64,000 bases of DNA. Origin: Eubacteriales bacterium. Lineage in GTDB: Bacteria; Bacillota; Clostridia; Oscillospirales; CAG-272. How positions within the stretch are numbered: position 1 is the stretch's first letter; each line of letters begins with the position of its first letter. The notes under the pieces were generated by a model, which saw only the letters and a program-made list of their open reading frames with translations, ran no database searches and was not told the origin of the DNA. The position numbers and the translations under genes were made by a program. Positions 17,540 through 61,500 of the stretch are shown in pieces. The stretch is from NCBI GenBank assembly GCA_045577755.1, contig JAZNJA010000055.1, positions 974-64,973 of the forward strand. Direction: 5' to 3'.

Positions 17540-17569
17540 GGTAATGATCACGAAAAAGGAGATGACGGT

Positions 17570-20019: not shown

Positions 20020-20033
20020 AGTCGGTACAGTCC

Positions 20034-20270: not shown

Positions 20271-20289
20271 GATTCTATGCACCTCCTTG

Positions 20290-23200
20290 TTAGTTGTTGG
20301 AGCCCTTGACCACGCTCGCGTAGATAGCGGCGGTCTCAGCCATGAGGTCGCTGGCGAACACGTCGTACATATCCTGGGTAGCCGACACCTCAGCGGCGGC
20401 GGTGCCCTGGGAAAGCTTGTAGCCGTTCAGCTTGATGTTGGTCAGAGCCAGCACGTTGAGGTTGAGGTCACTTGTGCCAATGATCACAAGTGCTCGGTTG
20501 GTACCGTTGGGATTGCTGAAGACCAGGTCATCCTCCACGGTGAAGTACTGCTCGGTACCGCTGCAAACGCTGTGAACGTTCTCGTTCGCCTCAAAGTCCT
20601 CGGCGCTGTTGCCGAAGAACATCTCCACGGGGCTGTCGTTGCCGGTAGCCTTGATGTGGGCACCGATCTGGATGCTTCTCTCGCCCTCGAAGTCCTCGAC
20701 AAGCTCCACGTAGAAGGCGATGTAGGTGAAGGCCTCGCGGGGATTGCCATCGGCGTCGGCGGGGTTGGAGAGGTAGATCTCGTTGTTGGGACCGTAGGTC
20801 ATGTAGTCGGCCACGCTGTCGGTCTGGGTCATGATGAGATCGGCGCTGATCCGGTCATCGGCGGGACGGAAATTCTCGATCATGGTGTTACCGAACTGCC
20901 ACTTGGCAGCGCCGGCAGCCACGTCGGAGCCGCTGACGACCTGACCGTACACGATGGTACCGTTCTTGATAGAGGTCTTGATCTCGTGGAAGGTCACGTT
21001 GGACTCGTCGGCCTTGTAGAGCCCGCTGCTCTGCTCGGCAGTCAGAGGCTGGTAGACACGGACACCGTCCACGTAGACCATGCGAGCGATCTGATTGTAG
21101 TTGGAGGTATAGACAGTCACGCGGTAGGTGCTGTGAGCCATATCCTTACGGACCACGTAAGGCACCTGGGTCAGCTCACCCGAGACGCACTCGGTGATGA
21201 CGGGAATAGCCTTGACCTCGCCGTTCTTCAGATTCTCGATCTTGACGGTCAGCAGGGCGTAGGCCTTGGCGGTGGTGCGACCGACGATCTCGAAGCCGGT
21301 ACCGGTGAAGGTAAAGCTCATGATCTCGGCGCGCTCGGTGCCGTTGACGGCCATGGCGTGGATGGTGTCGTTGGAGGCGTCACCGAGGATAGCGTGGGAC
21401 ACGCCGTCCATGGTGCCGTGGATGGTCTGGAAGATCTCGTCGCCGACACCGCCCAGGATGCTCTGATCGTCGCCCTCCACGTAGGAGAGATCCAGCTGGC
21501 CGCGGTTATTGGTACCGCCGGCGGTATAGCCGGGATCCGAGCCGTAGTTCAGATTCTGATCGGGAGCCTGGTAATCCTTGACGGCGTCGCCCTCAAAGAC
21601 GGCCCAGATGTTGCCGGTGGCATCCTTACCGGTGTTGACGTAGGTGATGGCGCCCTCGCCGGTGAAGTTATCCTCGTAGTACATGACGTTGGCGGGAGCG
21701 AAGGTCACGGTCTGGAGCATTTCCACACCGGTCCACTTGCTGAGACCGTCAGCATCCGTCTCCATGAGGGTGATTTTGATATTGAAGGTATCCACGCCGT
21801 TCATGATCTTGTTCATAACGTAAGTGACGGCGGTATTCAGACCCTCGTCTTTGGTACTGAAGGTACCGAAGTGATCGGTGAAGTCCAGGAACTCGATCTG
21901 CAGATCCATACCGTTGGGGTTATCGATAAGGCCCAGGATATCGTTGGCCACCAGACCGTGGTCCTGCGTAAGAACGGTCACGGGGAGGTTGTAGTCCAGG
22001 ACGAAGACGTTATCGCCCACGCCATAGACGTACACGTCCACACGGACGGGAGGATAGGTGTTGCCGTCTGCGGTACAGGTCACGTAGAAGGCATCGACGC
22101 CACACTTGGGAGCCTGATAGAGGAAGTCGCCGTTTTCCAGTGCGGTGACGTACTTGTTGATGTCGCCGCCCTCCAGGTTACCGGCGGGAGAGGACAGAGC
22201 GAAGGTCAGATTACGACCGCTCAGAGCACCCTCACCGAGGGTCTGCTCCATGATCTCGCGGATATCCTCGGCGGTGATCAGCACGCCCTTGGAGACGTCC
22301 ACGAAGCTGCCGTCAGCCAGCTTGTTGTTCAGTCTGCCCCAATCGTATACGTGCAGGTTGTTGAACTTGATGTTCGCCTTGTTCACGCGGTGGTAATCGT
22401 TACCGTTCAGGACCTTGTCGGTCACGTTGTCGATATCGGTGGTTGCGGTGGTATACAGGTGGTTGATGTAGTAGGTCTTGCCGTCCTGCTCCACCCACTT
22501 GTCCTCGGGGATCTTGTAGGAGAAGCCGCCAATGGTCAGGCGCTCACCGGCGTTCAGGCCGTCGACCAGATACTCACGGATCGCGGCCTCGTCCAGACCG
22601 GTGACGCTCTCAGCGACGGTGCCGTCGGGATTGTACTTGGTCAGTACAAGCTTATCGACCGTCACACCCTCGGGCAGAGCGAAGCTCTCACCCTCCTTGT
22701 AGGTCAGGTTTGCGCCGATATCGGAATCGGTGAAGGTCAGGTTTTTGAAGGCGATCTGGCTGTTGTTGAAGATCGAGAAGGTGTACTCAACGGGGCTGTT
22801 GTAATCGACCACGCCGTCGTAGCCGATTTCATGACCGTTCTGGTAGGCCTTCTTCTCGGTGATCATGCTGGTATCGGCCACACGGATGTTGGTCTCGATG
22901 GACAGGTTAGCGGCGGTGCCGTGACGCTCCATGTAGAAGAAGTCGAAGCTGTAGATGCCGCCCTCCTCCAGGCCGCAGACCTCAGCCACGTCGTTCAGGC
23001 TGACCTTGACCTTGGAGATGGGGTGGGTACCGCCCACGTCGACGATACGCTTACCGTTGACGTACAGGTACACGTCGTCGTCACCGATGAAGGTGAAGTA
23101 CAGGTCCTCACTGTAGTGGTAGACGAAGTGAGCATGACCCTCCATAGTATAATGGAAGTTGGTGGTCTTGTAGTAGATGTTCTCGGAGTACGTGTTGTAG

Positions 23201-25377
23201 TTACCAAGCATCTTGCGGTAGGTATCCTGCTCTCTGGAGGCGCCGTTGACGTCGTAGCCCAGACCGAACAGGGGGTCGAAGCAGCCGACGGGCTGCTTGT
23301 TACCGCGGTGGTAGTACCAGTCGCCGGTGTTGCCGTTCAGTCTGCGCTGGGTGGCGAGCTCGAACTGGCTGTTCTGGATGATACCGTCGACACGGTCGTA
23401 GGTAACGTTATCGAACGCGGTACTGAACACGTAACGGACGTTTCCGTTCTCGTCAGTCTTGGCGACCAGATTCAGAGTGTTGTACTCGTTGGCGGTCATA
23501 CCGTAGCCGGGGTTGTCTACGAAGGTATTGTGGAGCAGGAAGTAGGCAGCGTCCATGTAGGTCTCGATGTGATTCAGACCGTTACCGCCGACCAGATCCT
23601 TGACCTTAGCCTGAGTGGCCTCGTAGGTACCGGACTGGGCATTTGCCAGCTTTTCGCGCAGGTAGGAGGCCAGGTCCTTACCGCCGTACGCCTCGTCTGC
23701 CTCGCCCTTGATGAAGTTCATATTGGTCTTACCGTTGGTCGTCTCAGGAAGGGGCAGAAGCTTTTCCAGGTACCAGGCGATAAACTCCACGACGCCTTGA
23801 CGGTACACAGGCTTGCCGTTCTCGCCCAGCTCAGCCTCCACCAGATCGTAGCGGATCTCCGCGCCGTAGACGTCCTGCTTCGCACCGCTGTTCAGGATCA
23901 CCTCAATGGGATCGGGCTCAGGCTGATACGTGTTGATGGAAGAGCCGTTGGCGACGTAGGTATAGTCGTTGCCGTTCTCGTCGCGAAGGACGATCAGCTC
24001 CTCGAACTTCTCGCGCACCTCGGGGTCATACTTGCCCAGGATCAGGTCGGCGTTTCTGGAACCGATCAAGGCGGTCAGCGCGAAGCCGCCGTTGTTACCC
24101 AGATTGTGATTCGGATAGCCGTTGAGATCGGGATCCAGGGCACTGTACTCGAACAGCATACCGTCGGCTCTGTAGTCGCGGATGGTGATGGGGAGAGCCA
24201 CCAGGCTGTGCTTCTCTGCCTCCACGCAGGCCTCGGCGCCCGAGAGGGTAGAGAAGGTGCGGATATAGGCAATATCCATCACGGGGTTTTCGCCGTCCGT
24301 GGTAGAGTCACCGTCGTAGAAGTCGAAGCGCAGATTCTTTACAGGTCTGCTCTCGCCAGACAGCACATCGGCGTGGACAATGACGGTCTCCCATTCGCCC
24401 GAATCGTCGAAGGTAATTTCGGTCGACATGGCTCCCGAATAGTGTCCGCGGCCATCGAAGTCATAGAAGAAACGACCGGTCGTGATGTTGGAGGTACGGT
24501 ACTTGATGACGATATAGTCCATCTTGCTGCCTGGGATCTGGCTGATCTGAGAGTCAAGGGTACCGATTTCAAAGAAGGGATCGCTCTCCACGCCCTCAAC
24601 AGTCAAAAAGCCTCGGTCGGTGGGACGCTTGAAGTCAATCTTCGACTTGGTGGCATCGCCGGGGACCGTGTAGTTCTGGATCTCATGGGTAACGATGGGA
24701 TCGTCGGTATGCTGGGTCAGATCAGCGGAGGCACTGGCCTTGACCACGTCGGCAACGGTGTAATTGAAGGCCAATACGTTGTTGGAGCCGTTGATCGATG
24801 CGGTGCGGAACCAGAAAGCCGCGTTATTGGCCGCAGAACTGCCCATGAGCACGGTAAAGCCGTTCTGGTAAGCGCCTCCTGCGCCAAGCTGCTCGCAGGT
24901 CAGGCGGAAATACAGAGAGCCCTCCAGAGATACGCTCGCGGGTATTTCGCAAACAAAATCCGTATTGTCGGCGGGGCCGGTAAATACACCCTCCCAAAGA
25001 GGAGTCTTACCCTCAACCGAAGCGTTCAGGTCGTCCGTATTGCCGTTAGAATTGGTAGCGGCGAAAATGCTGACGCGGATCTTGGGAGGAGTCGTGGCTC
25101 CGTAGTTAGCCATGCTGGGAACCACAAGCCGCACAAGACGCTTCTCGGCGGGAATATGGATCTTACCCCACAGTGCCTCCCCCGTGCCGGCTCGCACAGG
25201 ACCGCAATGCCCTGTGGTGCCTCCCTGATACGTAGAGTAGGTTGCCTCTCCCGGATACTGTGTATCCGCGACGGCGCTCACCTCGTCCTCCGTCGCCGCG
25301 AAAACGGTGCCGGGCACACAGGTCACCACCATCAGTACCGACAGGATGAACGCGAGAATTCTCTTTGCATTCTTCAT
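20290..25377 (-). CDS. giant secreted protein G1 (1695 aa) with fibro-slime/PA14-like domain
   Basis: Start re-set to the ATG 6 nt after AAAGGAG. Signal peptide MKNAKRILAFILSVLMVVTCVPGTVFAA. LPITIRDYRADGMLFEY ... FIGDDDVYLYVNGKRIVDVGGTH ... FFYMERHGTAANLSIETNI. Confidence 0.9.
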   Translation of the reverse strand: MKNAKRILAFILSVLMVVTCVPGTVFAATEDEVSAVADTQYPGEATYSTYQGGTTGHCGPVRAGTGEALWGKIHIPAEKRLVRLVVPSMANYGATTPPKIRVSIFAATNSNGNTDDLNASVEGKTPLWEGVFTGPADNTDFVCEIPASVSLEGSLYFRLTCEQLGAGGAYQNGFTVLMGSSAANNAAFWFRTASINGSNNVLAFNYTVADVVKASASADLTQHTDDPIVTHEIQNYTVPGDATKSKIDFKRPTDRGFLTVEGVESDPFFEIGTLDSQISQIPGSKMDYIVIKYRTSNITTGRFFYDFDGRGHYSGAMSTEITFDDSGEWETVIVHADVLSGESRPVKNLRFDFYDGDSTTDGENPVMDIAYIRTFSTLSGAEACVEAEKHSLVALPITIRDYRADGMLFEYSALDPDLNGYPNHNLGNNGGFALTALIGSRNADLILGKYDPEVREKFEELIVLRDENGNDYTYVANGSSINTYQPEPDPIEVILNSGAKQDVYGAEIRYDLVEAELGENGKPVYRQGVVEFIAWYLEKLLPLPETTNGKTNMNFIKGEADEAYGGKDLASYLREKLANAQSGTYEATQAKVKDLVGGNGLNHIETYMDAAYFLLHNTFVDNPGYGMTANEYNTLNLVAKTDENGNVRYVFSTAFDNVTYDRVDGIIQNSQFELATQRRLNGNTGDWYYHRGNKQPVGCFDPLFGLGYDVNGASREQDTYRKMLGNYNTYSENIYYKTTNFHYTMEGHAHFVYHYSEDLYFTFIGDDDVYLYVNGKRIVDVGGTHPISKVKVSLNDVAEVCGLEEGGIYSFDFFYMERHGTAANLSIETNIRVADTSMITEKKAYQNGHEIGYDGVVDYNSPVEYTFSIFNNSQIAFKNLTFTDSDIGANLTYKEGESFALPEGVTVDKLVLTKYNPDGTVAESVTGLDEAAIREYLVDGLNAGERLTIGGFSYKIPEDKWVEQDGKTYYINHLYTTATTDIDNVTDKVLNGNDYHRVNKANIKFNNLHVYDWGRLNNKLADGSFVDVSKGVLITAEDIREIMEQTLGEGALSGRNLTFALSSPAGNLEGGDINKYVTALENGDFLYQAPKCGVDAFYVTCTADGNTYPPVRVDVYVYGVGDNVFVLDYNLPVTVLTQDHGLVANDILGLIDNPNGMDLQIEFLDFTDHFGTFSTKDEGLNTAVTYVMNKIMNGVDTFNIKITLMETDADGLSKWTGVEMLQTVTFAPANVMYYEDNFTGEGAITYVNTGKDATGNIWAVFEGDAVKDYQAPDQNLNYGSDPGYTAGGTNNRGQLDLSYVEGDDQSILGGVGDEIFQTIHGTMDGVSHAILGDASNDTIHAMAVNGTERAEIMSFTFTGTGFEIVGRTTAKAYALLTVKIENLKNGEVKAIPVITECVSGELTQVPYVVRKDMAHSTYRVTVYTSNYNQIARMVYVDGVRVYQPLTAEQSSGLYKADESNVTFHEIKTSIKNGTIVYGQVVSGSDVAAGAAKWQFGNTMIENFRPADDRISADLIMTQTDSVADYMTYGPNNEIYLSNPADADGNPREAFTYIAFYVELVEDFEGERSIQIGAHIKATGNDSPVEMFFGNSAEDFEANENVHSVCSGTEQYFTVEDDLVFSNPNGTNRALVIIGTSDLNLNVLALTNIKLNGYKLSQGTAAAEVSATQDMYDVFASDLMAETAAIYASVVKGSNN

Positions 25378-25863
25378 GTTTTTCTCCTTTGTTGTGTTGT
25401 TTTTCGGATTGCGGGCAGCGCGGGGCGAGTCACCTCGCTGCATCCGCAGGGGATCTGCTATGGGGTAAGTGCGAAGGATGGCGCCTCCTCTCGCGGGGAA
25501 TGGCGCGCATTCGACCGTCGGCAGGGGTTCTCAATCCCCGGGCCCGACAACAGTCAGCTCGATCCGTAACCGTTTCCCGACAAGTGATTTCGGGCAACGA
25601 AGGGATCCGACCGGGCCTCGGACGACCATACTTGAACCTTTTGCTTGGGGGGAACGGGTGAGCTGAGCGGCATCGGTCCAAAGGACGGTATCCGACTCGG
25701 GCACCAATGACTGTCTGCAGAAAGATAAAATAAAAGCCTTCTCACGGTTCCGTATTTACCCCCTCGGGGTCTTGAGTCCTCAGGCTGTTTGACTCCGCCC
25801 GCCAATAGAAACACTTCGGGCATTCGTCGATTTGGGCACAACCCACCCTTTGCCTGCGACATA
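25378..25863 (-). promoter_or_regulatory. long (about 485 nt) GC-rich structured 5' leader of G1, class unknown
   Basis: Lies between the promoter at 25871-25899 and the G1 RBS. It has no plausible ORF and multiple local hairpins. Confidence 0.4.
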
Positions 25864-44025: not shown

Positions 44026-44062
44026 AAAAAAATAAGGACGAAACACTTCGTTTCATCCTTAT
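44026..44062 (-). terminator. rho-independent terminator closing the G2 operon
   Basis: Minus strand reads ATAAGGATGAAAC gaagt GTTTCGTCCTTAT followed by T7-8, 12 nt after the PqqD stop. Confidence 0.8.
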
Positions 44063-44073
44063 TATACAGAGTA

Positions 44074-44343
44074 TCATTCGTCAAGAAGCTGATTGCTCCG
44101 CAGCATTTCGACGAACTCCTCTGCTTCGGCGCGGGCGGATTCCAAATCCAAGCCGTCGTACTTTTCCATGAGAGCAGTAACCATAGTTTCCATATCCGTT
44201 CCGGCCATCATCAGTTCCCACATGAATCGGGCGGTGGTATTCAGCGTCACCACCACACTGTGGTGATTGGGGACGATCGAGACAGCGATCGATTCACCAG
44301 CCACCTCCGAAACCGCGAATTCATACTTAATTTTCATCATACG
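44074..44343 (-). CDS. PqqD-family peptide-binding protein (RiPP recognition element)
   Basis: Start re-set to MMKIKYEF, 6 nt after AAGGAG, giving 89 aa. PqqD pattern ...VVVTLNTTARFMWELMMAGTDMETMVTALMEKYDGLDLESARAEAEEFVEMLRSNQLL. Confidence 0.85.
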   Translation of the reverse strand, partial: RMMKIKYEFAVSEVAGESIAVSIVPNHHSVVVTLNTTARFMWELMMAGTDMETMVTALMEKYDGLDLESARAEAEEFVEMLRSNQLLDE

Positions 44344-44433
44344 GTGCTCCTTTCGCGCTGTAATCAGCCCGTTAGAGTATTTTTCATATACATCCGTCTC
44401 TGTCACGGTCACACCGCCGTGAAGCGGGCCGTG

Positions 44434-44952
44434 TCAAGGGATGATCACGCCACCGGGGCCGATCTCGATGCCGGGGTGTCTTTCCTCGTAATCAGCCTTG
44501 GCCTGTTCAAACCAAAGAAAAAATCCCTCTATATCAGCAAAGCTGTTGAAGAAATCCAACTGCTCCTGAGACGTCATAGCGGAATATTCCTCATAGGTCG
44601 GGCTTGGGGCGGAAGGCGTATTGTCCTGAGTTTCCTCCCCCTCCGTCTCCCCTGTAACCTCGTCATTCGCCGCCGTATCCTCGGGGGGCGGGACCTGGGA
44701 GTCCTGGGTGACGTCGGGATCCGACATCACGTCGGAGCTTGTCTCTTGGGTCTTTGGCTCGGTTTCGGTTCGGTCCGGGGATACGGGATCCGTCTGCACG
44801 GCAGGATCGGTACTCACGGTCTCGGCGAGGGACACGGCCGGATCCTCCGCAGGCCCACGGCCGCAGGAAACGCAGAGGATGGCAAAAAGCAGTATCGCTC
44901 CGAAGAGGCCGGCGCGTATTGTTCTCTTTTGTTTATCGGTAAAGGTTCTCAT
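44434..44952 (-). CDS. acidic lipoprotein of unknown function
   Basis: MRTFTDKQKRTIRAGLFGAILLFAILCVSCG signal and lipobox, then about 90 aa of D/E/T/P-rich linker and a conserved-looking C-terminal approx 50 aa (YEEYSAMTSQEQLDFFNSF...). The start is uncertain because there is no clear SD. Confidence 0.6.
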   Translation of the reverse strand: MRTFTDKQKRTIRAGLFGAILLFAILCVSCGRGPAEDPAVSLAETVSTDPAVQTDPVSPDRTETEPKTQETSSDVMSDPDVTQDSQVPPPEDTAANDEVTGETEGEETQDNTPSAPSPTYEEYSAMTSQEQLDFFNSFADIEGFFLWFEQAKADYEERHPGIEIGPGGVIIP

Positions 44953-45015
44953 AATTTTCAGATAGACCCGGATCTGTTGCAAAAAACCGATCCGGATCTA
45001 TAGCAAGCTGTTCGC

Positions 45016-45201
45016 TTAGTCGTCATCGGGGAACGTGGGGGGAGTGTTGGTGTTACTACCTAAACCAATCTCACCGTCGATATCAGGGTCCATACCGTTG
45101 TTGAAGTAATCCACATTGTTACCCACAACAGAACTCAGGATGTTCTTATCGCCGTTCTCAACAATGATGCTCATTTTCGCTTTCGTGTACTTCTCCTTCA
45201 C
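45016..45201 (-). CDS. small acidic peptide P2 (61 aa), homologue of P1
   Basis: GTG 10 nt after AAGGAGG. MKEKYTKAKMSIIVENGD leader-like start. Asn/Asp-rich tail with a DPDIDGEIG (DxDxDG) loop and C-terminal FPDDD. 11 acidic against 5 basic residues. Confidence 0.6.
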   Translation of the reverse strand: MKEKYTKAKMSIIVENGDKNILSSVVGNNVDYFNNGMDPDIDGEIGLGSNTNTPPTFPDDD

Positions 45202-45255
45202 AGAATATTCTCCTCCTTTCTTCAGCCTATGGGATCCTCGAAGGGCTCCCATAGG

Positions 45256-45960
45256 TTATTTCATTTTGAGAGCCGCCGTGGTCATGACACGGTTGCTCAA
45301 GAGAACCGCTTCCTCGTCCGCGCGATTCTCCAGCATGAATACGGGTATTTCCCGGCTGAGCTGTAAAACACCCGTCAAAAGCAATTCACGGTTTTTCGGT
45401 ACCCGTAGCTTGTTCAGCGTTTGGGATACGATTGCGGGAATCGCGTCCTCAGGAGACAGCGCGGTGATGCGATTCTCCGTCGCTTGCCTGAGGAAACAGA
45501 TCCCGGCCAGGGGCACCCGCATATTGATGTTGATGCCGTCCTTTCCACACCAGGGAGTACCGTAGGCATACCATGCTCCGTCCACCCGCCGCAAGGCAGG
45601 CTTATCGTCGTTGAACACCTGCACCTCCTCGCCGAAGACGGATCGCCACAGGCGGGTATGGGTGCTTTTTCCCACCCCGCTGGGGCCGGAAAAGAGATAG
45701 GCCTGTCCCTTATAGGCAATGGCCGAGGCATGGAGCATCAGACCACCGTGCGCGAGCAGACGGATATAGAAGCGCGACCCCGATTCCATGTAGCAGCACA
45801 GCTCATGGGAAACGTTTTTCCAAAGCTCCGGACGGTAATCCTCTTCGCGGATCACGATGTCGGGAACGCGGTCGCTTTCGTATCGGTATGCCCCGATGCG
45901 GGGGGCTAAGCCCCCCGTTTCGGGCACTTCCACAAGTAGGTCAGCGATTTTGCAGAGCAT
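45256..45960 (-). CDS. HPr kinase C-terminal-domain-like P-loop protein (K2)
   Basis: 234 aa. GLMLHASAIAYKGQAYLFSGPSGVGKST Walker A in an HprK-like context. Its ATG lies 5 nt after the G2 stop (TAAattccATG). Confidence 0.8.
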   Translation of the reverse strand: MLCKIADLLVEVPETGGLAPRIGAYRYESDRVPDIVIREEDYRPELWKNVSHELCCYMESGSRFYIRLLAHGGLMLHASAIAYKGQAYLFSGPSGVGKSTHTRLWRSVFGEEVQVFNDDKPALRRVDGAWYAYGTPWCGKDGININMRVPLAGICFLRQATENRITALSPEDAIPAIVSQTLNKLRVPKNRELLLTGVLQLSREIPVFMLENRADEEAVLLSNRVMTTAALKMK

Positions 45961-45965
45961 GGAAT

Positions 45966-48900
45966 TTACTGATTCGAGCTTTCAGGCAGAGTCTGGATCA
46001 CCTCGACTACCGAGCCGGTATCCGAGACGACCTGCAGCTTGACCGTGAGGTTCTCGATGGCGGCGGCACCGGCCAGAGTGAAGCGGAAGGACTTGTTACC
46101 GCCGAAGCACTCCTGAACCATCTCATCGGTGAACACGTAGCTCTTGATGGTCTTCACGCCGTTGGCAGTCCACTCAGCGACCACACGGAAGGAAACACCG
46201 TGGTTCTCGTAGGTATCGCCGGTCATGAAGGTAGCGGTGGAGCCATTGACCTGAGCCTTGAAGTCAACGGTCAGATTGCCGTTCTCGTCAACCTTCGCGC
46301 CAAGCTTGCTATCCTCGGCAGGATCGTTCTTGATAAGGTAGCGGCCGAAGACGTAAGAGGAGGTTGCCTGATTCCAGATGGGCAGAAGAGCGCTGGTAGC
46401 GTCTGCGTAGCAACCCTCAGCAATGATCACGCGGTTCTTGTCGATCTTGATGGTACCGGAGGCTCTGGTTGCGGAGTAGCTCTTACCGGTCAGGTAGCCG
46501 CCCTTGAAGACCACGAGGTAATCAGCGGTCAGGGTCTTATCCTGAACGTCAAGCACCACGCCGTCATAGACCAGAACGACGCTCTCGGTGTGATCCTTGA
46601 TCAGGTAGACGGTATCCTTGCCGGTGGTCTTCTGAGCCTCGGCCATAGCGGCGGCGATGGAGTTGAAGAACTTCGCCTCATCGGAGCCCTCGGTCATGAC
46701 CTTGACCACGGTATCAGCGGGGATGACGGTCCAGACATTCTCCTCGATCTCGTAGGACATGTAGCCCTCGGCTACAGCGTTGAAGAAGGGAGCGGAGTTT
46801 TCGTAGTCATCGGGGGTGTTCTCAGGATCGAAGCCGTAGAAGGTACCGCCGTAGACGGTCACGGTAGCCTTACCGGAGATGAAGTACTTGGAGTTCTGTC
46901 TGTCCTTATCGTGACGAACGATGAGGTAAGACGCGTCATCAGCGGTGGTTTTGAACTCGCCGCCATTGATGACCAGGTCGCCGCCGTGAGTCACGTGGAT
47001 CAGACCGCTCGTGCCCTCGGTGGTGTACTTACCGTTCTCGATGGTGACCAGAGTCTCGGTGCCAACGACCCAGATCAGAGGATACTCGGTGTTGGAGATC
47101 ATACCGTCGCCGTCCTTGCTGTCCTTAACGGTGATCCGGCAGTTATCCATGAACAGGAACAGGTACGCGTCAGCGTTGTTGGTGATGGTATGGCCGTTGA
47201 GATCCAGCACAGCATTGACGTTGCTGGGGCTGTTCACATTGTCCACACGGGTACCGCCAACGTAGTTGATAGCGGGGTTGTAGTAATCGCCGAAGCCGGT
47301 TGCGCCGCCGATAGCAGCAACAACGTCGTCCTCACCGTAGACCAGATCGACCAGCAGGATGACGGTTTCACCGTCGGTGCAGGCGTTGAAGGCATCCATG
47401 AGAGATGCGTAGTAGGTCGTGCCGACCTGAGCTACGGCCTCCTCAACGGTCAGGGTGCCGGGAACGACCTTCACATAGTAGCCGTCGATGGCATCGGGAG
47501 TGCAGTTGATATCGAAGACGCCTGCGGTCTTACCGTCAGTAGCAACGCTGAGATCCTTCAGAGTGACCGTGACGTCGGTCCAGTTGAAGTACTCAACGGA
47601 GTAGGTAAGCTCGGGCATCTGGTTGCCTGCGACCATGTTCAGATCGTCAACGGTGATCACGATCATGGGCTTGACAACGTAGGTTCCGTCGGCCTGAGGC
47701 TCAGCGCCGTAGCCGATCTCGCAGAGGTCGCTCACATCGGAGGAGAAGGTACCGCCGGTGATGAAGTTCTCATCAGCCAGCTTGCTCTCGCCCTCGGTGT
47801 AGTAGGCCACAGCCTCACCGTTGGCGGACTGGAAGGTACCGCCGGTGATGCTCACGACGGGAAGCTCGTAAGCGGAGTTTGCGCTTGCCTCAATGACAAC
47901 CGCGTCACCGGTTGCGGTAGCTCCGTTGTTGTTGGGAGCGTACGCGACCTTATCGCCGGTAGCGATGAAGGTACCGCCGGAGATGTTGATGGTACCGGAC
48001 TTAGCCCAGACAGCGGTCTTACCGGAGATCACGCCGTCGGAAATGGTCAGAGTACCGTTCTGAGGCCAGTAGATCGCCATATCGGAGTTGGGAGCCGAGA
48101 CGTTGGGAACACCCACGTAGCCACCCCACTTGGAAATGGTGACGTTACCGGCGTAATTGCCGTTACCCTGGATAGCGGGATAATCGCCGTACGCGGTCAG
48201 GGTGACGCCGCCCTTGACGGTTACGTTACCGCCGCGGAGATAGACAGCGTTGCCGGTCTGGGACTTGATGATGGTGCGCTGGGACAGATCGCCAACGCCC
48301 TGGATGGTCAGGCTGCCGCCGTTCACGTAGAAGGCGTCGCCCTGAGCGTCGATGATGATGTTCTTGACTGCGAAGATGCACTTCTCCAGCTTGAACAGAG
48401 GACCGTCGTGAGTGCTATTGATGGTATACTTCATACCGTCATTCATCTCGAGGGTACCGCCGTTGGGATCATCAAAGACGTAGGTCTTGTTCAGAGTAAT
48501 ATTGTCGAGGATCACGTAGTTCACGTATCCGGTAGCTGCCAGACCTGCGTTCCATGCCTCGTCGAAGTCGGCATAGAAGGTGGTCTGACCGTTGGCGACT
48601 ACCTTAACGATGGCCTTCTGAACCGTCAGAGTGCCGGGGATCACCTCAACAGCGTACTCGTCATTCATGAAGACGTATGCATCCGCGGTGATCTCGTAGG
48701 TGCCCACGCCGTTCAAAACGACCTCAGGCTTACCAACGACCAGGAGCAGGCCGTCCTCGGCCACGTCGCCAAAGTCGGTGGTGTAGGTGAACTCGGGAAG
48801 CTTGTTGCCGTTGACGATGGTGATATCGTCGAACTTCACGGTGATCACAGGCTTAACAGTCCAGGTACCGTCACCGTTATCGACAGCCTTGAAGCCCTCG

Positions 48901-51900
48901 GTCACGGTATCGGTGGTCTCGCCCATAGCCAACTTGTTATCAGCGGTCTGCTGGAAGTAGTGAGCCTTGCTGGGATCCATACCGACGAAGGTACCGCCGG
49001 TGACCACGATCTTGGTCTTAGCAAAGTCGATCACGCTGTTCTTGTACTCGCCGCCATGGACGACGATCAGGTAAGAGTTACCCTCGCTATCCAGAGCCTG
49101 CTCGAAGCTACCGCCCTCGATGTAGAGCTCGCCGCCGTGAGAAGCGTACAGGAACAGGTTGGTAGCGCCGCACTCAGCGCAACCGTTGTTGACCCAGTTA
49201 CCACCCTGAATGGTGATAGCGGTGTCGGGGGAAGCGGAATACACGCCGGAAGCCACGCCGTAGACGATGACGTCACCCTCACCCACGATGGTCAGGTGTG
49301 CGCCGTCATTAGCGAAGAACAGGCCGTGAGCGACGGTGCAAGAGTTGTAGGTCTTGCCATTCCACTCGAAGGACTCGTGGCCGTTGTAGGTGATGGAGTG
49401 GCCGTTCAGGTCGAAGGTCACGTCGTAGTCACCGACCACGTTGAAGATGCCGTAGTTGGGGTACTTGCCGTTGCCGTTGGTGGGAGCGGGGATGGACTCG
49501 ATCATGGAGCCGTCCACGATAATGTCGCGGTCCAGAGTCACGTCGTTGCCGGCCAGCAGCTGGTCCTTAATCCACTGAATGTAGTTAATGACCGTGTAGG
49601 TGTCGTCGCCGTTGTCAACGGAAATGTGAGTCTCGGGCACGAAGTCAGTGCCTGCGCCCTCAGCGGCGTTGTTCTCGGGGTTGAACTTATAGAAGGTACC
49701 GCCCTTCACAACGATGGATGCGGTGCCATCCTTGTAGTTGGCGTCGATGCAGTTGAGGGTGTAATCGTAGCTACCCTCGTAAGGCTCGACGGAGAAGTCA
49801 CCGCCCAGAACGGTCAGAGTACCCTTAGTCACGGATGCGACAGAGGTACCGCCGTGGTAGGTGCCATCCACAATGGTCAGGTTACCGGCAACAGCCGTAT
49901 CGTCAACGGTGCCGCCGACGATGAAGCAGTAAGCCTCAGTATCCATGGTACCGTTCTTGACAGTCAGATCCGTCAGAACGCGGATTGCGGGATTGATCTC
50001 GTTCTCGGTGGTAATGGTATAGCCGCCGAGATCCAGAGTGATAGCCCCCTCAGTCTTAGTCAAGACAGTCTCGGAGAGGGTAACGTCCTTCAGCAGGGTA
50101 ATGACGTCGCCGTCCACGGCTGCGGCGAAGGCATCCTGCAGAGTCGTGTAGTAGGATACGTTACCGTCGGCATCGGTGACGGTTGCGACGCACTCAATAA
50201 TGGTAACATCAACGCCGTCAGCCATGTTACCGATGAACTTCAGATCGGAAACGCCGGTGTAGTAGCAACCGTCCAGCGTGATCTCGTCCACCAGATAATC
50301 GCGAGTGCCTGCGGGATAGCGGCCGTCGTACTTGGGAGTCACGTCGTACAGCGCGCCACCGAACTGACCTGCGTAGCCGGTGCCGTTGTTGGTCACGGTG
50401 CCGGAAGCGGAGCAGTTGTTGTAGACACCGCGGTCGCCGTCGCCGAAGAAGCCGCCGATGTCAGCAGTAGCACCCTCAACTGCCGTAATGTCGCCGGAGG
50501 CGGAGCAGTTGTTGAAGGTAGCGTACATGGAATTGTTGTTGGAGTTGGTTGCGGAACCGACGAAGCCGCCTGCGGAAGCCACCTTGGTGATGATGTCCAC
50601 GTCAGCGGTGCAGTCGGTGACTACGTGACCCATCTGGCCAAGGTCAGCGTTCCAACCGAGGTCGCCGAAGAAGCCGCCTGCGAAGCAGTCAGCGGAGGTC
50701 ACGCCGGTGACGTCGATCTTACCGGAAGTATGGCAGTTCTCAGCAATGGTGTGAGCGCCGGGCCATGCAATAAAGCCGCCAACGTCAACCAGACCGGAAG
50801 CAGTAATGTCGATACCGGTGATATCGCTGTTGATGATCTTGGGATTCTCCCAACCGCGCTGGGTCTGAGCAACGAAGCCACCCACGCCGCAACCGGAAGC
50901 ATCGGTATCAGTAACAGTTACCTTGAAGCCCTTGACATCGAGGTTATCAAAGACATGGTTGCTGTTCTTCTGCAGGATGCAAGCGAAGCCGCCAATCAGG
51001 TCAGCGCCTGCAGTAGCATCGACCACAAGATTCTCAACCGTGCAGTTGGTCATCCAAGGCCAACTCATAAAGGCTGCCATACCGCCAACCCAAGCATTGG
51101 TGTGAGTGGTGGTGACGGTAATATTCTTAACGGTAACGTTGTGAACGACACCCTGAATGGAATTAGCCAGAGTACCGAAGCGTGCGTTACCTACAGTTGC
51201 GGTCACATCGGAAAGGATCAGATCCTTAACCTTGACGTCCTCAAGGCCATTGCTGCTTGCAATGACGTTGAAGAAGCCGCCGCTTGCAGAAGTAGCATCG
51301 ATATGGAAGTTGGAAATGATGTGGTTGTTACCCACGAAGTTTCCAGCAAAGGAAGCAATGGGGGTCCAGGTCATACCACCCAGATCGATGTCAGCCATCA
51401 GATCAACAGTCCAGCCGGAGAAGTTGTTGCCGGAGTTGGCCAGAGCCGCGAAGGTCATGAGATCGTCAACGTCCCAGATCTCCAGCACGTTCTCGCTACC
51501 GGGAACGACCGTAAAGTTCTCGCCGTTTGCGACCGAGGTATAGCCCTCGGCGATCTTAACGGAGGTGCCCTCGGCAGTTGCGTAGTCTCTCTCGTAGGTA
51601 CCACCGTACAGAACGGTAACGCCGCCGTTAGCGTTGGTCATACCGTAGTAGTATTCGGGGGTATTGGAGACGAGCGTACCGCCGTAAACAGTCACGTTAC
51701 CGGCCTGGTTCTCAACGATCACCTTACCGACGAACGAGCCGTCATTAATGATGATCTTACCTGCGTAGGTCTCGACTGCGATACCATCAGCAGAAACGAT
51801 CTCGCCGCCGTTGATAGTGGTCTCGCCGCAGGTATCCACGATGGCGTAGCCGCCTCCGTTGGTAGCAACGATCTTACCGCCGTTGACGGTCAGAACGCCA

Positions 51901-54900
51901 TACTGGTTCTCGATGGTCGCGTACCAGGCGCCGAGTGCGGTGAACTCGCCGCCATAGATAACGACGGTCGCCTTACCGCTCTGCAGCTCGTTGTTATAGA
52001 TCGCGCCGTACTCGCCGGTGAAGAAGCCGCCGTTGACGGTCAGCGCGCCGTAGTTGTCGATAGCGACCAGGCCGCCCTCGATCTTACCGTTCTGAGTCTC
52101 GTCGTTGACGATCAGCTCAGCGTAGTTCACCAGCATGCCGGTGATGGTATGACCGTTCAGGTCGATGACCTTCTTGGCGGTGCCGGCAATGGTCAGACGA
52201 CCCTCGTCGGTCAGCTTGATGTCCTTAAGCAGAGTGACCTTGATGGGAAGGTTGGTGTTCTCGCCCAGAGCTGCGACCAGATCGGCCCAGTTCTCGACGG
52301 TGATGTAGCTGGTGCCCCAGACGCCGGGCATGAGCTCGACCTCGACCTTAGCCAGCTTGGCGAGGGTGACACTGTAGGTGCCGTCGCCGTTGTCGGCAGC
52401 CTCGTAGCCCTCAGCCACCCACTCGGTGGGATCGCTGTCGAAGGTACCGCCGGTGATCTCTGCGACCAGACCGTCGGTAACGATCATGTCAAAGTTGTTA
52501 AACGTACCGCCGGTGATCTCCAGAGCGCCGGGAGCGGCGTTGACAGCGATCGTGCCGTCAATGGTCATGCCCTCGCCGATGGTAGCGGGAGAACGGAGGA
52601 AGATGGATGCACCGTTCCAGCTGTCGTTGGAAGCAGTGTTACCGATAATGGAGCCGGCGTTCAGCACAATGGAGGTATCCTCATGCTGGCCGTGGCTGCC
52701 GCCGACCCAACGGGAAGCGATAGCGCCGGCGCGGCCGCCCTCATTGTAATTGATCGTGCCGCCGTTCATGACGAACTGAGAAGCACCCTCAAGAACGATC
52801 ATGGCACCTGCGGTGTTAGAACCAACGCCGATATGCTCATTGTAGTTCATGACGGCATCGAAGGTCACCTCCGTGCCGTTGATGACGCCCAGGATGGTAG
52901 CACTTCTGGCCATGGCCTTGTTGTAGGTGATGACACCCTTGATGTCCATGGTGCCGCCGTTGGCAATGATGATACCGCCCTTATTACCGGCACCCATGTT
53001 ATACATAACGTTGGTGTTCAGGCTGGTTTCAGCATTGATGGCGTTCAGGACCATACCGGCATTATACATAATGGCACCGCCGTTGATGGTGACCTTACCG
53101 CCGTTGGACTTGATCAGAGCGAGATCATCGTTGTACATCAGGTAGAAGCCGCCGGTCTCGGTGTTGGCAGTCTTACCGTTGTCGCCGTCGCTGGCGATGG
53201 TCACGCCCGTGATGGTCACGCCGTTCAGCGTCAGATCACCGGCGTTGACGATGACGTTATCGTTGATCGCCTTGTCCTCCTCGCCGACGTCCACGAAGCG
53301 AGTGTACCAGTTCTGGCCGTTCTCGACGGTAGTGGTGTCATCGTAGAAGGTGAAGGAATTCTCACCGTCGATGGTGAGGTCCTTCAGGGTGACGCTCACG
53401 CCACTCTCTACATTAAAGATAGTGCCGTTATAGCCGTCAGCCCAGGTGATGGTCTTGCCGTCACCCTCGATGATGACGTCCTTGGAGATGGTCATCATCT
53501 CACCCACGGTGGCATCAGTCAGCAGGGTGATGGTCGCGCCGTTCTCGGTTGCGTTGGCAGCGGCGATGGCGTCTGCAAGAGTCCAGTACTTGACATCGCC
53601 GATCTGGGCGACCTCGGTGGGATAGTAGGGAGGCTCAACACTGTAGGAGACGTTCTCCAAGGTCAGAGTTTTGCCCTCAGCCAGCTTGAACTCGCCAATG
53701 ATGCCTGCGCAGTACTCGGTATCGCTGGTCACGTTGCTGCTTGCCGTACAATCCTTGATGGTCACGTTCTTGCCGTAAGCGGTGCCGTTACCGGCAGTCC
53801 AAGCAGCCCAACCGTGGTTGGCGGTGGAGCCGATGAAGCCGCCTGCAACGTCGGTACCGGTCACAACACCGGAAGCAGAGCAACCGTCAAAGGTCACGTC
53901 AGTGGTGTAGCCGTGCTCGGTCAGACGGCCGGCAAAGCCGCCTGCGGTAGCGGCAGTCACGTCACCGCGAGCCTCGCAGTTGACGTAGCTGACGTAGGAA
54001 TTGTGATTACCCACAAAGCCGCCTGCGATGTTCGAAGCGGTGATGTCCACGTCGGCCACGCAGTTGGTGTAGGTCTGCTGAGCGTACTCGTAGGTTCTGG
54101 CTACGAAGCCGCCGACCTTGGCGTGGTAGTTGACGGGGTTTGCGGGATCGCTGCAACGCTCCACGATCTTACCGGAAACAGAGCAATCCGTGTACTTGGT
54201 ATTGGGGCTCTGGGAGGTACCGACCATACCGCCGACGCGGGTCTCACCCAGATAGTCGGTGGTCACGTCGAAGTCGATGTTGGAGATGTGGACGTTCTGA
54301 ACGTTGTGGCCGTTGTCACTTCTCCAGAAGTAACCGACCAGACCGCCGACGAACGCCTCGTGTGCATCCACGTCGATCTCAAGGCCGTCGATGGTACCGT
54401 CCTTGAGGGTGATGTAGCCATAGTAGGTGTAGGGAGCGTATCCGCCTGCAAACACGGTGTAAGCGTCTGCGGTGATGGAAACGTTCTCCACGTTGAAGGT
54501 ATCCACCAGCATAGCCGCTCTGGTATTGCCGTTATTGGAGATATTCTGGCCGCACAGGTAGCCGAGAATAGCAGCCGCGCGAACCTCATTACTGCCATCG
54601 GCCTTGGCATCAATGGTCAGGCCGGAGACGTTGATGTTCGCCAGGTTGGCAGGATAGCAGTAGCCTACGACACCGCCGATCAGAGCGGAGCCGGACTTGG
54701 ATTGAGCGTTGATCGTGCAACCATTGACCGTGATGTTCTCAAAGTTGATCGCAGCGTCGGTACGGTTCTCGCTGTTGCTGTGTGCAATACCCACAACAGC
54801 CGCCGCGCGGACCTTTGCGCCGACGACGTCAATATTGACGTTGGTCATGGTGAGGTTCTTGATCGTAGCCTTCTTGACACCGCCAAACAGACCGACAAAC

Positions 54901-55289
54901 TGATTTGCGTCGGGCGTGTTGACGTTGATGGTCATGTTGCTGATGATATGATCCTGACCATCGAAGTTGCCGCAGAAGTAATTGGTATCGTTACCGATAG
55001 GCGTCCAGTTGAGGCCCGCCAGATCAAGGTCGCTGCCCAGGGCAACGATCTTCCCTGAGTAGGTATCACCGGAGTTGACAGACTCTGCAAAATTCAGCAG
55101 CTCGTCAACCGAGTTGATTACCAGATCCGCCTCGGAGTTTTGCACGTCAACAGTGCCGGCGGCATCGTTGCCATCGACCGCGTTGACGTCATTCGCCGTG
55201 TCCTCTGCGAAGACTCCCAGACCAAACAGCGATACCATCATTACCGCCGCCAGCAGGAAGCCCAGAAGACGCATAGAATTCTTCTTCAT
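45966..55289 (-). CDS. giant secreted beta-helix/adhesin-like protein G2 (3107 aa) with GLUG-type repeat modules
   Basis: Signal peptide MKKNSMRLLGFLLAAVMMVSLFGLGVFAED. Two modules start with ...F.GNFDGQDHIISN... and continue with serial (A/V)GG(F/L/M)(V/I)G turns. Many GGTF...DP...AEGY...DGTY(T/S)V capped beta-helix units. AAAGGAAAAAGCT-ATG RBS. Confidence 0.92.
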   Translation of the reverse strand: MKKNSMRLLGFLLAAVMMVSLFGLGVFAEDTANDVNAVDGNDAAGTVDVQNSEADLVINSVDELLNFAESVNSGDTYSGKIVALGSDLDLAGLNWTPIGNDTNYFCGNFDGQDHIISNMTINVNTPDANQFVGLFGGVKKATIKNLTMTNVNIDVVGAKVRAAAVVGIAHSNSENRTDAAINFENITVNGCTINAQSKSGSALIGGVVGYCYPANLANINVSGLTIDAKADGSNEVRAAAILGYLCGQNISNNGNTRAAMLVDTFNVENVSITADAYTVFAGGYAPYTYYGYITLKDGTIDGLEIDVDAHEAFVGGLVGYFWRSDNGHNVQNVHISNIDFDVTTDYLGETRVGGMVGTSQSPNTKYTDCSVSGKIVERCSDPANPVNYHAKVGGFVARTYEYAQQTYTNCVADVDITASNIAGGFVGNHNSYVSYVNCEARGDVTAATAGGFAGRLTEHGYTTDVTFDGCSASGVVTGTDVAGGFIGSTANHGWAAWTAGNGTAYGKNVTIKDCTASSNVTSDTEYCAGIIGEFKLAEGKTLTLENVSYSVEPPYYPTEVAQIGDVKYWTLADAIAAANATENGATITLLTDATVGEMMTISKDVIIEGDGKTITWADGYNGTIFNVESGVSVTLKDLTIDGENSFTFYDDTTTVENGQNWYTRFVDVGEEDKAINDNVIVNAGDLTLNGVTITGVTIASDGDNGKTANTETGGFYLMYNDDLALIKSNGGKVTINGGAIMYNAGMVLNAINAETSLNTNVMYNMGAGNKGGIIIANGGTMDIKGVITYNKAMARSATILGVINGTEVTFDAVMNYNEHIGVGSNTAGAMIVLEGASQFVMNGGTINYNEGGRAGAIASRWVGGSHGQHEDTSIVLNAGSIIGNTASNDSWNGASIFLRSPATIGEGMTIDGTIAVNAAPGALEITGGTFNNFDMIVTDGLVAEITGGTFDSDPTEWVAEGYEAADNGDGTYSVTLAKLAKVEVELMPGVWGTSYITVENWADLVAALGENTNLPIKVTLLKDIKLTDEGRLTIAGTAKKVIDLNGHTITGMLVNYAELIVNDETQNGKIEGGLVAIDNYGALTVNGGFFTGEYGAIYNNELQSGKATVVIYGGEFTALGAWYATIENQYGVLTVNGGKIVATNGGGYAIVDTCGETTINGGEIVSADGIAVETYAGKIIINDGSFVGKVIVENQAGNVTVYGGTLVSNTPEYYYGMTNANGGVTVLYGGTYERDYATAEGTSVKIAEGYTSVANGENFTVVPGSENVLEIWDVDDLMTFAALANSGNNFSGWTVDLMADIDLGGMTWTPIASFAGNFVGNNHIISNFHIDATSASGGFFNVIASSNGLEDVKVKDLILSDVTATVGNARFGTLANSIQGVVHNVTVKNITVTTTHTNAWVGGMAAFMSWPWMTNCTVENLVVDATAGADLIGGFACILQKNSNHVFDNLDVKGFKVTVTDTDASGCGVGGFVAQTQRGWENPKIINSDITGIDITASGLVDVGGFIAWPGAHTIAENCHTSGKIDVTGVTSADCFAGGFFGDLGWNADLGQMGHVVTDCTADVDIITKVASAGGFVGSATNSNNNSMYATFNNCSASGDITAVEGATADIGGFFGDGDRGVYNNCSASGTVTNNGTGYAGQFGGALYDVTPKYDGRYPAGTRDYLVDEITLDGCYYTGVSDLKFIGNMADGVDVTIIECVATVTDADGNVSYYTTLQDAFAAAVDGDVITLLKDVTLSETVLTKTEGAITLDLGGYTITTENEINPAIRVLTDLTVKNGTMDTEAYCFIVGGTVDDTAVAGNLTIVDGTYHGGTSVASVTKGTLTVLGGDFSVEPYEGSYDYTLNCIDANYKDGTASIVVKGGTFYKFNPENNAAEGAGTDFVPETHISVDNGDDTYTVINYIQWIKDQLLAGNDVTLDRDIIVDGSMIESIPAPTNGNGKYPNYGIFNVVGDYDVTFDLNGHSITYNGHESFEWNGKTYNSCTVAHGLFFANDGAHLTIVGEGDVIVYGVASGVYSASPDTAITIQGGNWVNNGCAECGATNLFLYASHGGELYIEGGSFEQALDSEGNSYLIVVHGGEYKNSVIDFAKTKIVVTGGTFVGMDPSKAHYFQQTADNKLAMGETTDTVTEGFKAVDNGDGTWTVKPVITVKFDDITIVNGNKLPEFTYTTDFGDVAEDGLLLVVGKPEVVLNGVGTYEITADAYVFMNDEYAVEVIPGTLTVQKAIVKVVANGQTTFYADFDEAWNAGLAATGYVNYVILDNITLNKTYVFDDPNGGTLEMNDGMKYTINSTHDGPLFKLEKCIFAVKNIIIDAQGDAFYVNGGSLTIQGVGDLSQRTIIKSQTGNAVYLRGGNVTVKGGVTLTAYGDYPAIQGNGNYAGNVTISKWGGYVGVPNVSAPNSDMAIYWPQNGTLTISDGVISGKTAVWAKSGTINISGGTFIATGDKVAYAPNNNGATATGDAVVIEASANSAYELPVVSITGGTFQSANGEAVAYYTEGESKLADENFITGGTFSSDVSDLCEIGYGAEPQADGTYVVKPMIVITVDDLNMVAGNQMPELTYSVEYFNWTDVTVTLKDLSVATDGKTAGVFDINCTPDAIDGYYVKVVPGTLTVEEAVAQVGTTYYASLMDAFNACTDGETVILLVDLVYGEDDVVAAIGGATGFGDYYNPAINYVGGTRVDNVNSPSNVNAVLDLNGHTITNNADAYLFLFMDNCRITVKDSKDGDGMISNTEYPLIWVVGTETLVTIENGKYTTEGTSGLIHVTHGGDLVINGGEFKTTADDASYLIVRHDKDRQNSKYFISGKATVTVYGGTFYGFDPENTPDDYENSAPFFNAVAEGYMSYEIEENVWTVIPADTVVKVMTEGSDEAKFFNSIAAAMAEAQKTTGKDTVYLIKDHTESVVLVYDGVVLDVQDKTLTADYLVVFKGGYLTGKSYSATRASGTIKIDKNRVIIAEGCYADATSALLPIWNQATSSYVFGRYLIKNDPAEDSKLGAKVDENGNLTVDFKAQVNGSTATFMTGDTYENHGVSFRVVAEWTANGVKTIKSYVFTDEMVQECFGGNKSFRFTLAGAAAIENLTVKLQVVSDTGSVVEVIQTLPESSNQ

Positions 55290-55558: not shown

Positions 55559-55587
55559 ATTGTACCACAACGGGCTCCGTTTGTCAA
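55559..55587 (-). promoter_or_regulatory. promoter of the G2 operon
   Basis: Minus strand reads TTGACA-17 nt-TACAAT with an extended TG, and the upstream flank is AT-rich. Confidence 0.7.
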
Positions 55588-60935: not shown

Positions 60936-60954
60936 TCGGAAAATGTCCTTTCTA

Positions 60955-61485: not shown

Positions 61486-61500
61486 GTGGTGTTTCCTTTC

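Follow-up and report, generated by a model that had tools for sequence, protein, structure and literature searches.

Linear polyphosphorylated peptides (LPPs), the closest described system to the one analyzed here, were defined in Bacilli by Popov et al. (Nat Commun 2026; PMC13381572). The precursor, LppA, has the leader YxxPxVLxHQxIxFET/xxS; an HprK-like kinase, LppK, polyphosphorylates Ser3; and LppB is a discrete RiPP recognition element (RRE; RiPP, ribosomally synthesized peptide with post-translational modifications), whose residue N33 fixes the kink at the leader Pro (PMC13381572). The leader peptidase LppS is SipW-like, depends on LppB, and recognizes F-3, E-2, and T-1; export is assigned to the MsbA-like LppD, and LppN is an NTP transferase. 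The clusters, reported to carry one to three precursors, have no cyclase and are embedded in capsule loci; the LppA substitution P-13A weakens RRE binding, and F-3 inserts into the peptidase (PMC13381572). We analyzed a 64,000-nt stretch of a Eubacteriales genome (GCA_045577755.1, contig JAZNJA010000055.1, positions 974 to 64,973; hereafter the window), in which the genes for a kinase-like protein (K2), a small acidic peptide (P2), an anchored protein, and a PqqD-family protein stand together. A sequence-only reading of the window had proposed that these four genes form a leader-dependent, possibly phosphorylating module without a RiPP maturase, and that no system of such composition was described. 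The second part of this proposal no longer holds, as LPP clusters share the kinase, the RRE, and the YxxP-leader peptide and likewise have no cyclase (PMC13381572).

The window and the LPP clusters of Bacilli have in common a YxxP-like small precursor, a discrete PqqD-type RRE, a kinase of the HprK fold, and the lack of a cyclase; the window differs in its gene order and has no peptidase, exporter, or NTP transferase. What the paeninodin-type lasso peptide clusters (PadeA/B1/B2/C/D/K) share with the loci described here is a kinase resembling HprK, a B1 protein of the PqqD type, a [Y/W]xxP leader, NTP_transf_5, and an ABC exporter; however, the window and its relatives are without the cyclase and the B2 cysteine protease, and the paeninodin RREs have Gly where the window RRE keeps Asn. 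On balance, we favor the interpretation that K2, P2, and PqqD represent, in trimmed form, a RiPP family that extends across Clostridia and is sister to the LPPs, with a phosphorylating pathway that in this variant would operate without cleavage or with processing in trans. Homology of the module with the LPP-type pathway is the component of this interpretation that we consider very probable. The features of the locus are as follows.

55559..55587, minus strand: promoter-like site upstream of the giant gene, TTGACA-17-TACAAT with TG (consensus match alone)
45966..55289, minus strand: giant gene for a 3107-aa secreted protein with a signal peptide; open reading frame (ORF) that opens the operon
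45256..45960, minus strand: K2, 234 aa, includes LHASAIAYKGQAYLFSGPSGVGKST (ORF and AlphaFold2 fold)
45016..45201, minus strand: P2, 61-aa precursor-like peptide (ORF with GTG start)
44434..44952, minus strand: membrane-anchored acidic-linker protein, with its LipoC domain at 44437-44607 (ORF and LipoC hidden Markov model, HMM)
44074..44343, minus strand: PqqD-family discrete RRE, 89 aa (Pfam PqqD)
44031..44063, minus strand: intrinsic terminator with a 15-bp stem, a 3-nt loop, and a T-run (terminator scan)

All four ORFs were found on the minus strand at the coordinates originally assigned to them, and their placement directly downstream of the 3107-aa gene was confirmed: K2 begins 5 nt past the stop codon of the giant gene. 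The following gaps measure 54 nt (K2 to P2), 63 nt (P2 to the anchored protein), and 90 nt (anchored protein to PqqD). The terminator scan recovered the terminator that had been read at 44026-44062, and it found no terminator-like site on the minus strand between the operon genes. In a consensus scan, the promoter-like site had 11 of 12 sigma-70-like matches and an extended -10 element; it is the likely start of the transcription unit. The short gaps, the lack of an internal terminator, the promoter-like site, and the terminator at the end point to one unit, which suggests that the four genes are the tail of a single operon of ~11.5 kb headed by the giant gene.

The PqqD-family protein passed the Pfam PqqD cut-off (47.1 bits against 23.4, E = 3.1e-12), in agreement with its earlier assignment. 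By homology, it is a member of the discrete RRE-type, leader-binding chaperone family. The best NCBIfam matches were two lasso PqqD models, both below cut-off, and the paeninodin-family lasso models that had been put forward as a check gave sub-threshold matches or none. A PDB sequence search with this protein returned no matches. For comparison with LPP sequences, we used BLASTP against Supplementary Data 1 of Popov et al.; the window protein was 36% identical to an RRE of their sequence similarity network (SSN) cluster 9 and 31% to cluster 4, and the match to LppB (~30%) covered 33 aa only. The equivalents of LppB residues N33, W40, and F74 are retained, and Glu replaces the Asp that in LppB (D70) binds Tyr.

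For K2, sequence models and structure gave different degrees of support. K2 scored 34.6 bits against the NCBIfam model ScmC (TIGR04249), under the cut-off of 125, and about 20 bits against HprK_rel_A and HprK_rel_B, where the cut-off is 200; Pfam Hpr_kinase_C (PF07475), the model suggested earlier for verification, had no match at E <= 1. K2 has more than 3375 homologues, and PF27840 ("ScmC") is assigned to the exact K2 protein and to 120 of the 120 homologues listed; this assignment is a precomputed annotation. An AlphaFold2 model built from 20 homologues had a predicted local distance difference test (pLDDT) score of 92.4. In a Foldseek search against the PDB, its top match was the HprK/P of L. 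casei (1jb1, E = 7e-6, probability 1.0), followed by PEP carboxykinases (PEPCK), which belong to the same superfamily. A PDB sequence search with the kinase profile gave nothing useful and did not recover 9X8Z. The residues H77, G97-K98-S99-T100, and N117/D119/K120 are invariant in the K2 alignment, and we take them to correspond to the catalytic His, the P-loop, and the ADD motif of HprK/P. The HprK-like character ascribed to K2 is therefore upheld by the fold and by the His, P-loop, and DD motifs, but not by sequence HMMs, and we describe K2 as a putative peptide Ser/Thr kinase of the HprK/P fold.

With HprK/P itself, K2 shares the fold of the C-terminal P-loop domain together with these motifs. 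It differs in having ~15% identity, no Hpr_kinase_C match, no HPr context, and another N-terminal domain, and in adjoining a peptide and an RRE. Among sequence families, K2 fits best with the ScmC of SynChlorMet (TIGR04249 / PF27840), although its score is below that cut-off. The SynChlorMet cassette has radical S-adenosylmethionine (radical-SAM)/SPASM partners; neither the window nor the related loci contain them. We know of no biochemical function for ScmC; a literature search for the SynChlorMet cassette returned no paper, and one for ScmC had nothing relevant among the matches listed.

To place the locus among its relatives, one genome per species was scanned, and a relative of K2 was encoded in at least 486 candidate stretches; the sister family is carried by these stretches and by more than 3000 protein clusters. 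We kept and annotated 80 loci (designated by L numbers), and the frequencies given below count only loci with enough flanking DNA. Nearly all 80 are from metagenome-assembled genomes (MAGs). All are labeled Clostridia, chiefly Oscillospiraceae, Faecousia, or Eubacteriales, and a few are labeled Lachnospiraceae, Acetatifactor, or Anaerovoracaceae. In these loci, as in contigs that were already annotated, the canonical order is a giant secreted protein, a peptide of 35-60 aa, an ScmC-like kinase, PqqD, an anchored low-complexity protein, a SipW-like S26 peptidase of ~155 aa, and a 545-aa MsbA-like ABC exporter and/or NTP_transf_5. The components were recovered in these proportions.

PqqD: 67 of 76 loci
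Anchored-protein (LipoC) domain: 65 of 75 loci
SpI-like peptidase: 45 of 69 loci
NTP_transf_5: 16 of 57 loci
Homologous giant C-terminal domain immediately upstream of the kinase: 49 of 66 loci

The context of giant gene, peptide, kinase, and PqqD thus recurs across uncultured gut Oscillospiraceae. The giant upstream gene is a conserved partner that the sequence-only reading missed. Nine of the 76 loci have no PqqD within 6 kb (L010, L025, L026, L027, L030, L048, L050, L057, and L072, from Faecousia, Eubacteriales, and Oscillospiraceae MAGs). These loci keep the peptide and the kinase, and eight of them keep the anchored protein; at these loci, the RRE would be supplied in trans or be dispensable.

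P2 is, judged by its conservation, a real gene under purifying selection. Orthologues are present in L086 and L087, whose kinases are 85% and 77% identical to K2, and both retain the ribosome-binding site and an ORF that starts at GTG. An independent gene caller places a 60-aa gene at the P2 position in other assemblies. The ratio of nonsynonymous to synonymous polymorphism (pN/pS) is 0.28-0.55 for P2 and 0.16 for K2. The strong ribosome-binding site (AAAGGAGGAG, ending ~9 nt before the GTG start) and the length of 61 aa are as first read, and so is the description of P2 as a leader-bearing acidic peptide: its leader reads KEKYTKAKM..., with Ala replacing the Pro of YxxP, and its acidic core ends with GEIGLGSNTNTPPTFPDDD. 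Among the orthologues, there is strict conservation of KEKYTKAKM in the leader and of GEIGxGxSTNTxPTxPDD at the C-terminus.

Across 52 non-redundant peptides of the family, the leader follows the pattern MKKxYxKPE[AVI]Ex[IV]x[FL]x[S/A], then [DE]Ex[IL][AMT]D, and then a variable acidic core with a median net charge of ~-6.5. Every core contains at least one Ser or Thr; no conserved Ser/Thr at a fixed core position was found among the 52, unlike Ser3 of LppA. In 34 of the 52, an aromatic residue lies within the final four positions. Relative to this consensus, the leader of the P2 clade has lost P3 (replaced by Ala), E4, E6, F10, and E14. P2 (KYTKAKMSIIVENGDKNILSS) also departs from the LPP leader pattern YxxPxVLxHQxIxFETxxS in having no Pro, F-3, T-1, or S3; the family consensus YxKPEaExIxFx[S/A] is related to the LPP leader but shorter and without S3. 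After deletion of three residues, the family leader can be aligned with the LPP leader (Y..P.V ... I.F.[S/T]); from this alignment, the predicted cleavage site follows the small residue located two positions beyond the conserved F/L. Two tandem, near-identical peptide genes (…ANDDWVDGEMGLESSIF) are located upstream of the kinase in L080. In the clade with Ala for Pro (the window, L086, and L087), the RRE has Glu at the D70 position, and L006 keeps both Pro and Asp. This apparent co-variation of leader Pro and RRE Asp is a single evolutionary event and only suggestive.

The window has the order giant, kinase, peptide, anchored protein, PqqD. Only three of the 59 species-level loci having both genes show the anchored protein before PqqD; among these three, the peptide also follows the kinase only in L006, as it does in L086-L088. 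Searches with tblastn and family HMMs found no SpI-like peptidase, 545-aa-type exporter, or NTP_transf_5 within the 64-kb window. In Pfam and HMM scans of the 64 kb, there was no radical-SAM, YcaO, or LanM-type enzyme, and no lasso cyclase or B2 Pfam family was detected in the window genes scanned (most ORFs of at least 150 aa). The lack of a RiPP maturase thus extends to the entire window. The proposed module composition stands insofar as cyclase, B2, and radical-SAM/YcaO/LanM enzymes are missing; it does not represent a complete minimal system, since relatives add a SipW-like peptidase and an exporter and/or NTP_transf_5.

In the relationship to the LPPs, similarity is greater for the canonical loci of Oscillospiraceae than for the window, as these also have the SipW-like peptidase, the MsbA-like exporter, NTP_transf_5, and the placement in or near capsule loci. 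The peptidase of the relatives is 24% identical to LppS (E = 1e-10) and 31-42% identical to those of SSN clusters 4 and 9, which are from Desulfosporosinus, Anaerocolumna, uncultured Ruminococcus, and Firmicutes CAG:56. In contrast to LPP precursors, the family has a leader that is ~3 residues shorter with neither HQ nor S3, and P2 in addition has Ala for Pro; further additions in the family are the giant gene upstream and an anchored protein whose C-terminal domain is conserved. Popov et al. filed the Clostridial RREs of SSN clusters 4 and 9 under "others" and not under LPP, and left them out of their analysis (PMC13381572); for this reason we regard the family described here as sister to the LPPs and not as part of them.

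The window contains a second module of this kind, which lacks an RRE and which the sequence-only reading, with its single peptide-kinase module, had missed.

19174..25443, minus strand: second, RRE-less module (P1, K1, and a secreted protein), followed by a GC-rich inverted repeat and a T-run read from the sequence
20290-25443, minus strand: secreted protein of 1717 aa (PA14 match below threshold)
20034-20270, minus strand: P1, 78-aa peptide, MKREYSKPTIHVEVMSL..., with 4 Cys
19174-20019, minus strand: K1, 281-aa ScmC-like kinase, 33% identical to K2 (ScmC HMM 158 bits)

The leader of P1, MKREYSKPT, keeps the canonical YxKP motif (YSKP), and neither a PqqD gene nor an anchored protein adjoins the P1/K1 module. 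The single PqqD may serve both modules of the window.

Given a PqqD RRE that passes its Pfam cut-off, a K2 model with the HprK fold, a conserved leader peptide, and no competing maturase, a leader-dependent, probably phosphorylating module is the best reading of the locus, as had been proposed. The PqqD-type RRE would bind the N-terminal leader of P2, and may also bind P1 with its canonical YSKP. It would then hand the peptide to K2, which with ATP would add phosphate to Ser/Thr residues of the acidic core. Among canonical relatives, the leader would be removed after IxFx[S/A] by the SipW-like peptidase, and the MsbA-like ABC exporter and/or the NTP_transf_5 enzyme would finish maturation. Because the window is without peptidase, exporter, and NTP_transf_5, and neither the Pro nor F(-3) is left in the P2 leader, the product here would most likely be phosphorylated P2 that is either uncleaved or processed in trans; it could also remain in the cell. 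The likeliest chemistry is that K2 phosphorylates Ser/Thr of P2 under guidance by the RRE, and we give it about even chances.

Several of the results weigh against this interpretation. K2 falls below every curated sequence cut-off, both for ScmC and for HprK_rel_A/B, in addition to lacking a Hpr_kinase_C match. The Ala in P2 replaces a Pro that is needed in LppA, where P-13A weakens RRE binding, and the Glu of the window RRE occupies the position of the Asp that binds the leader Tyr. The phosphorylation step in particular is weakened by the acidic cores, by the lack of a fixed acceptor comparable to LppA Ser3, and by the affinity of K2 to ScmC rather than to the lasso kinases; LPP cores are basic and Gly/Asn-rich, whereas those of the family are strongly acidic. 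The Clostridial RREs were grouped apart from the LPPs by Popov et al., and PqqD is not near the kinase in 9 of 76 relatives. Finally, with neither a leader peptidase nor a dedicated exporter in 64 kb, the pathway may be incomplete or repurposed.

The giant protein and the anchored protein have not been reported for LPP clusters, and their links to an LPP-type module are new. The giant protein has repetitive modules, an MBG_2 domain, and a conserved C-terminal domain, GiantC (GiantC HMM 137.7 bits). The anchored protein has an N-terminal hydrophobic anchor, an acidic linker, and a conserved C-terminal domain of ~55 aa, LipoC (LipoC HMM 83.7 bits), with the consensus TYEEYxAMSxxEQxAFxxSFxxxxDFFxWYNxAKAxYExxNPxIEIGxDGxIDLG. 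An AlphaFold2 model of LipoC has three helices (pLDDT 78) and no fold match in the PDB; LipoC belongs to no Pfam family. A database search with the single sequence found nothing, and one with the profile gave only short unnamed fragments. Weak profile matches to an HMG box (E = 2e-4 over 25 residues) were dismissed as chance helical similarity. The lipobox of the window protein is non-canonical (AILC / CVSC), and the anchors in relatives are a clear lipobox, a transmembrane helix, or SLH domains. The protein called a lipoprotein in the first reading is thus a membrane-anchored acidic-linker protein that is only possibly lipidated.

Many relatives repeat the final ~9 peptide residues within the linker of the anchored protein from the same locus (e.g., SVGDRGDDY and GVGERGDDY), in a segment 50-80 residues before the LipoC domain (L026, L080, L048, L001, L010, L050, and L043). 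Mirroring scores were 15.3 for own-locus and 12.0 for cross-locus comparisons (permutation p<5e-5), and the own locus ranked first in 6 of 46 loci, where ~1 was expected. Such mirroring was not seen in the window locus itself. In the C-terminal 250 residues of the giant protein, it was not significant (p=0.06).

Neighbor families were obtained by clustering the ORFs of at least 120 aa within 9 kb at the 80 loci. The recurrent families include Wzz/CpsD (17 loci), LytR_cpsA_psr (8), CpsB (8), and sugar-nucleotide enzymes; an Asn-synthase-like cyclase, a transglutaminase-like protease, and a radical-SAM enzyme were not among them. In L010, L025-L027, L030, L033, L034, and L048, the peptide-kinase operon adjoins or runs into capsule/glycopolymer genes downstream of the kinase. 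Such genes (Wzz/CpsC-CpsD, CpsB, LytR_cpsA_psr, and sugar-nucleotide enzymes) are also found at L004 1-2865 and L086 14914-20705. The context of giant protein, anchored protein, and capsule suggests a role at the cell surface.

Following from this context, the genes might be an accessory system for the giant surface protein or for the capsule, with K2, PqqD, and the anchored protein serving the assembly, anchoring, or release of the giant protein or a glycopolymer, and P2 acting as a ligand or adaptor and not as a secreted natural product. We consider this account unlikely, though it is compatible with the interpretation favored above and does not exclude it. It draws on the giant with a homologous C-terminus directly upstream of the kinase in most loci, on five further loci with an upstream ORF of >1000 aa that lacks the GiantC domain, and on the position of both window modules after a giant gene; the recurrent capsule families, the mirrored peptide C-terminus, and the tethering of the anchored protein by lipid, transmembrane helix, or SLH domains agree with it. 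However, the anchored protein and the K, A, and B genes occur without a giant gene in at least 12 of 66 loci, which weakens the notion that the anchored protein is the anchor of the giant protein; the giant proteins carry their own Sec signal peptides, and the giant C-terminus does not significantly mirror the peptide.

A more specific proposal is a hitherto unrecognized surface system of gut Oscillospiraceae in which a kinase-modified acidic peptide acts together with the anchored protein and the giant protein or capsule. The exported peptide would be a soluble mimic or ligand of the motif copy tethered in the linker of the anchored protein, and would control how giant adhesins or capsule are displayed, anchored, or released. 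We regard this as quite unlikely; if true, it would be the first biological role for LPP-type peptides. LPPs were described only in 2026 and only in Bacilli, and the present locus shows a sister family to be widespread among Clostridia of gut and rumen that have not been cultured. Three traits of this family have not been reported for LPPs: the acidity of the cores, an anchored partner protein that is conserved, and close synteny with genes for capsule and for giant secreted proteins. They open a role in the cell envelope to direct testing.

The trimmed state of the window could also mean that the locus is a decaying remnant of a canonical cluster in which P2 is becoming a pseudogene. The missing SpI-like peptidase, 545-aa exporter, and NTP_transf_5, the loss of five consensus positions from the leader, and the rearranged gene order, found in 3 of 59 loci, are what such decay might leave behind. 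Yet lineages with kinases 77-100% identical, and L006, retain the arrangement and an intact ORF together with its ribosome-binding site and GTG start, the pN/pS values of both P2 and K2 are low, and the leader and C-terminus are strictly conserved; we give decay little chance. Since the determinants for the peptidase were lost along with the peptidase gene and P2 is under purifying selection, a stable variant is indicated rather than random decay, and we classify the window locus, on comparison with its relatives, as a rare trimmed variant of the sister family. With its altered leader/RRE pair and without peptidase or exporter, it offers a natural experiment that asks which pathway components can be dispensed with.

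A different chemistry at the kinase step is a further alternative: K2 might not be a protein or peptide kinase but an ScmC-type P-loop enzyme that acts on the acidic core by, for example, nucleotidylation or carboxylate activation. The best sequence model for K2 is indeed ScmC and not a lasso kinase, the cores are dominated by Asp/Glu with no fixed Ser/Thr, and PEPCK-like matches appeared beside HprK in the fold search. The top structural matches are nevertheless to HprK/P, and the catalytic His, P-loop, and DD motifs of HprK are conserved; moreover, in the only experimentally characterized system that has these parts, the homologous component serves polyphosphorylation of Ser (PMC13381572). 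We find this alternative improbable.

A decayed or split lasso-peptide cluster with its cyclase and B2 protease encoded elsewhere, which the YxxP-type leader, PqqD-type RRE, and HprK-like kinase common to paeninodin-type clusters (PMC13381572) and the sub-cut-off lasso PqqD matches might recall, was rejected as having next to no probability, because no Asn-synthase-like cyclase or transglutaminase-like B2 was found among the window genes scanned, among the recurrent families of the 80 loci (where radical-SAM enzymes are also lacking), or in any annotated locus, the relatives carry a SipW-like peptidase instead, and the long acidic cores show no conserved ring pattern with Asp/Glu at positions 7 to 9. 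An adjacent cyclase or protease in related genomes had been named in advance as the finding that would speak for such a cluster.

Two ABC exporter genes of ~750 aa each (ABC_membrane), the only ones of exporter type in the window, flank a DUF1854 gene at 58689-63801 on the minus strand, upstream of a GH95 gene. As a candidate for the missing exporter, this pair found no support and is probably unrelated to the module: it is ~27% identical to the 545-aa exporter, has another architecture, and lies 13 kb upstream with the GH95 gene in between. A 545-aa ORF at 17438-19075 on the plus strand converges on K1; it is rich in Gly, Asp, and Asn and had no Pfam match at E <= 1e-5. The remaining genes of the window encode carbohydrate-active enzymes, sugar transport proteins, AraC regulators, and oxidoreductases.

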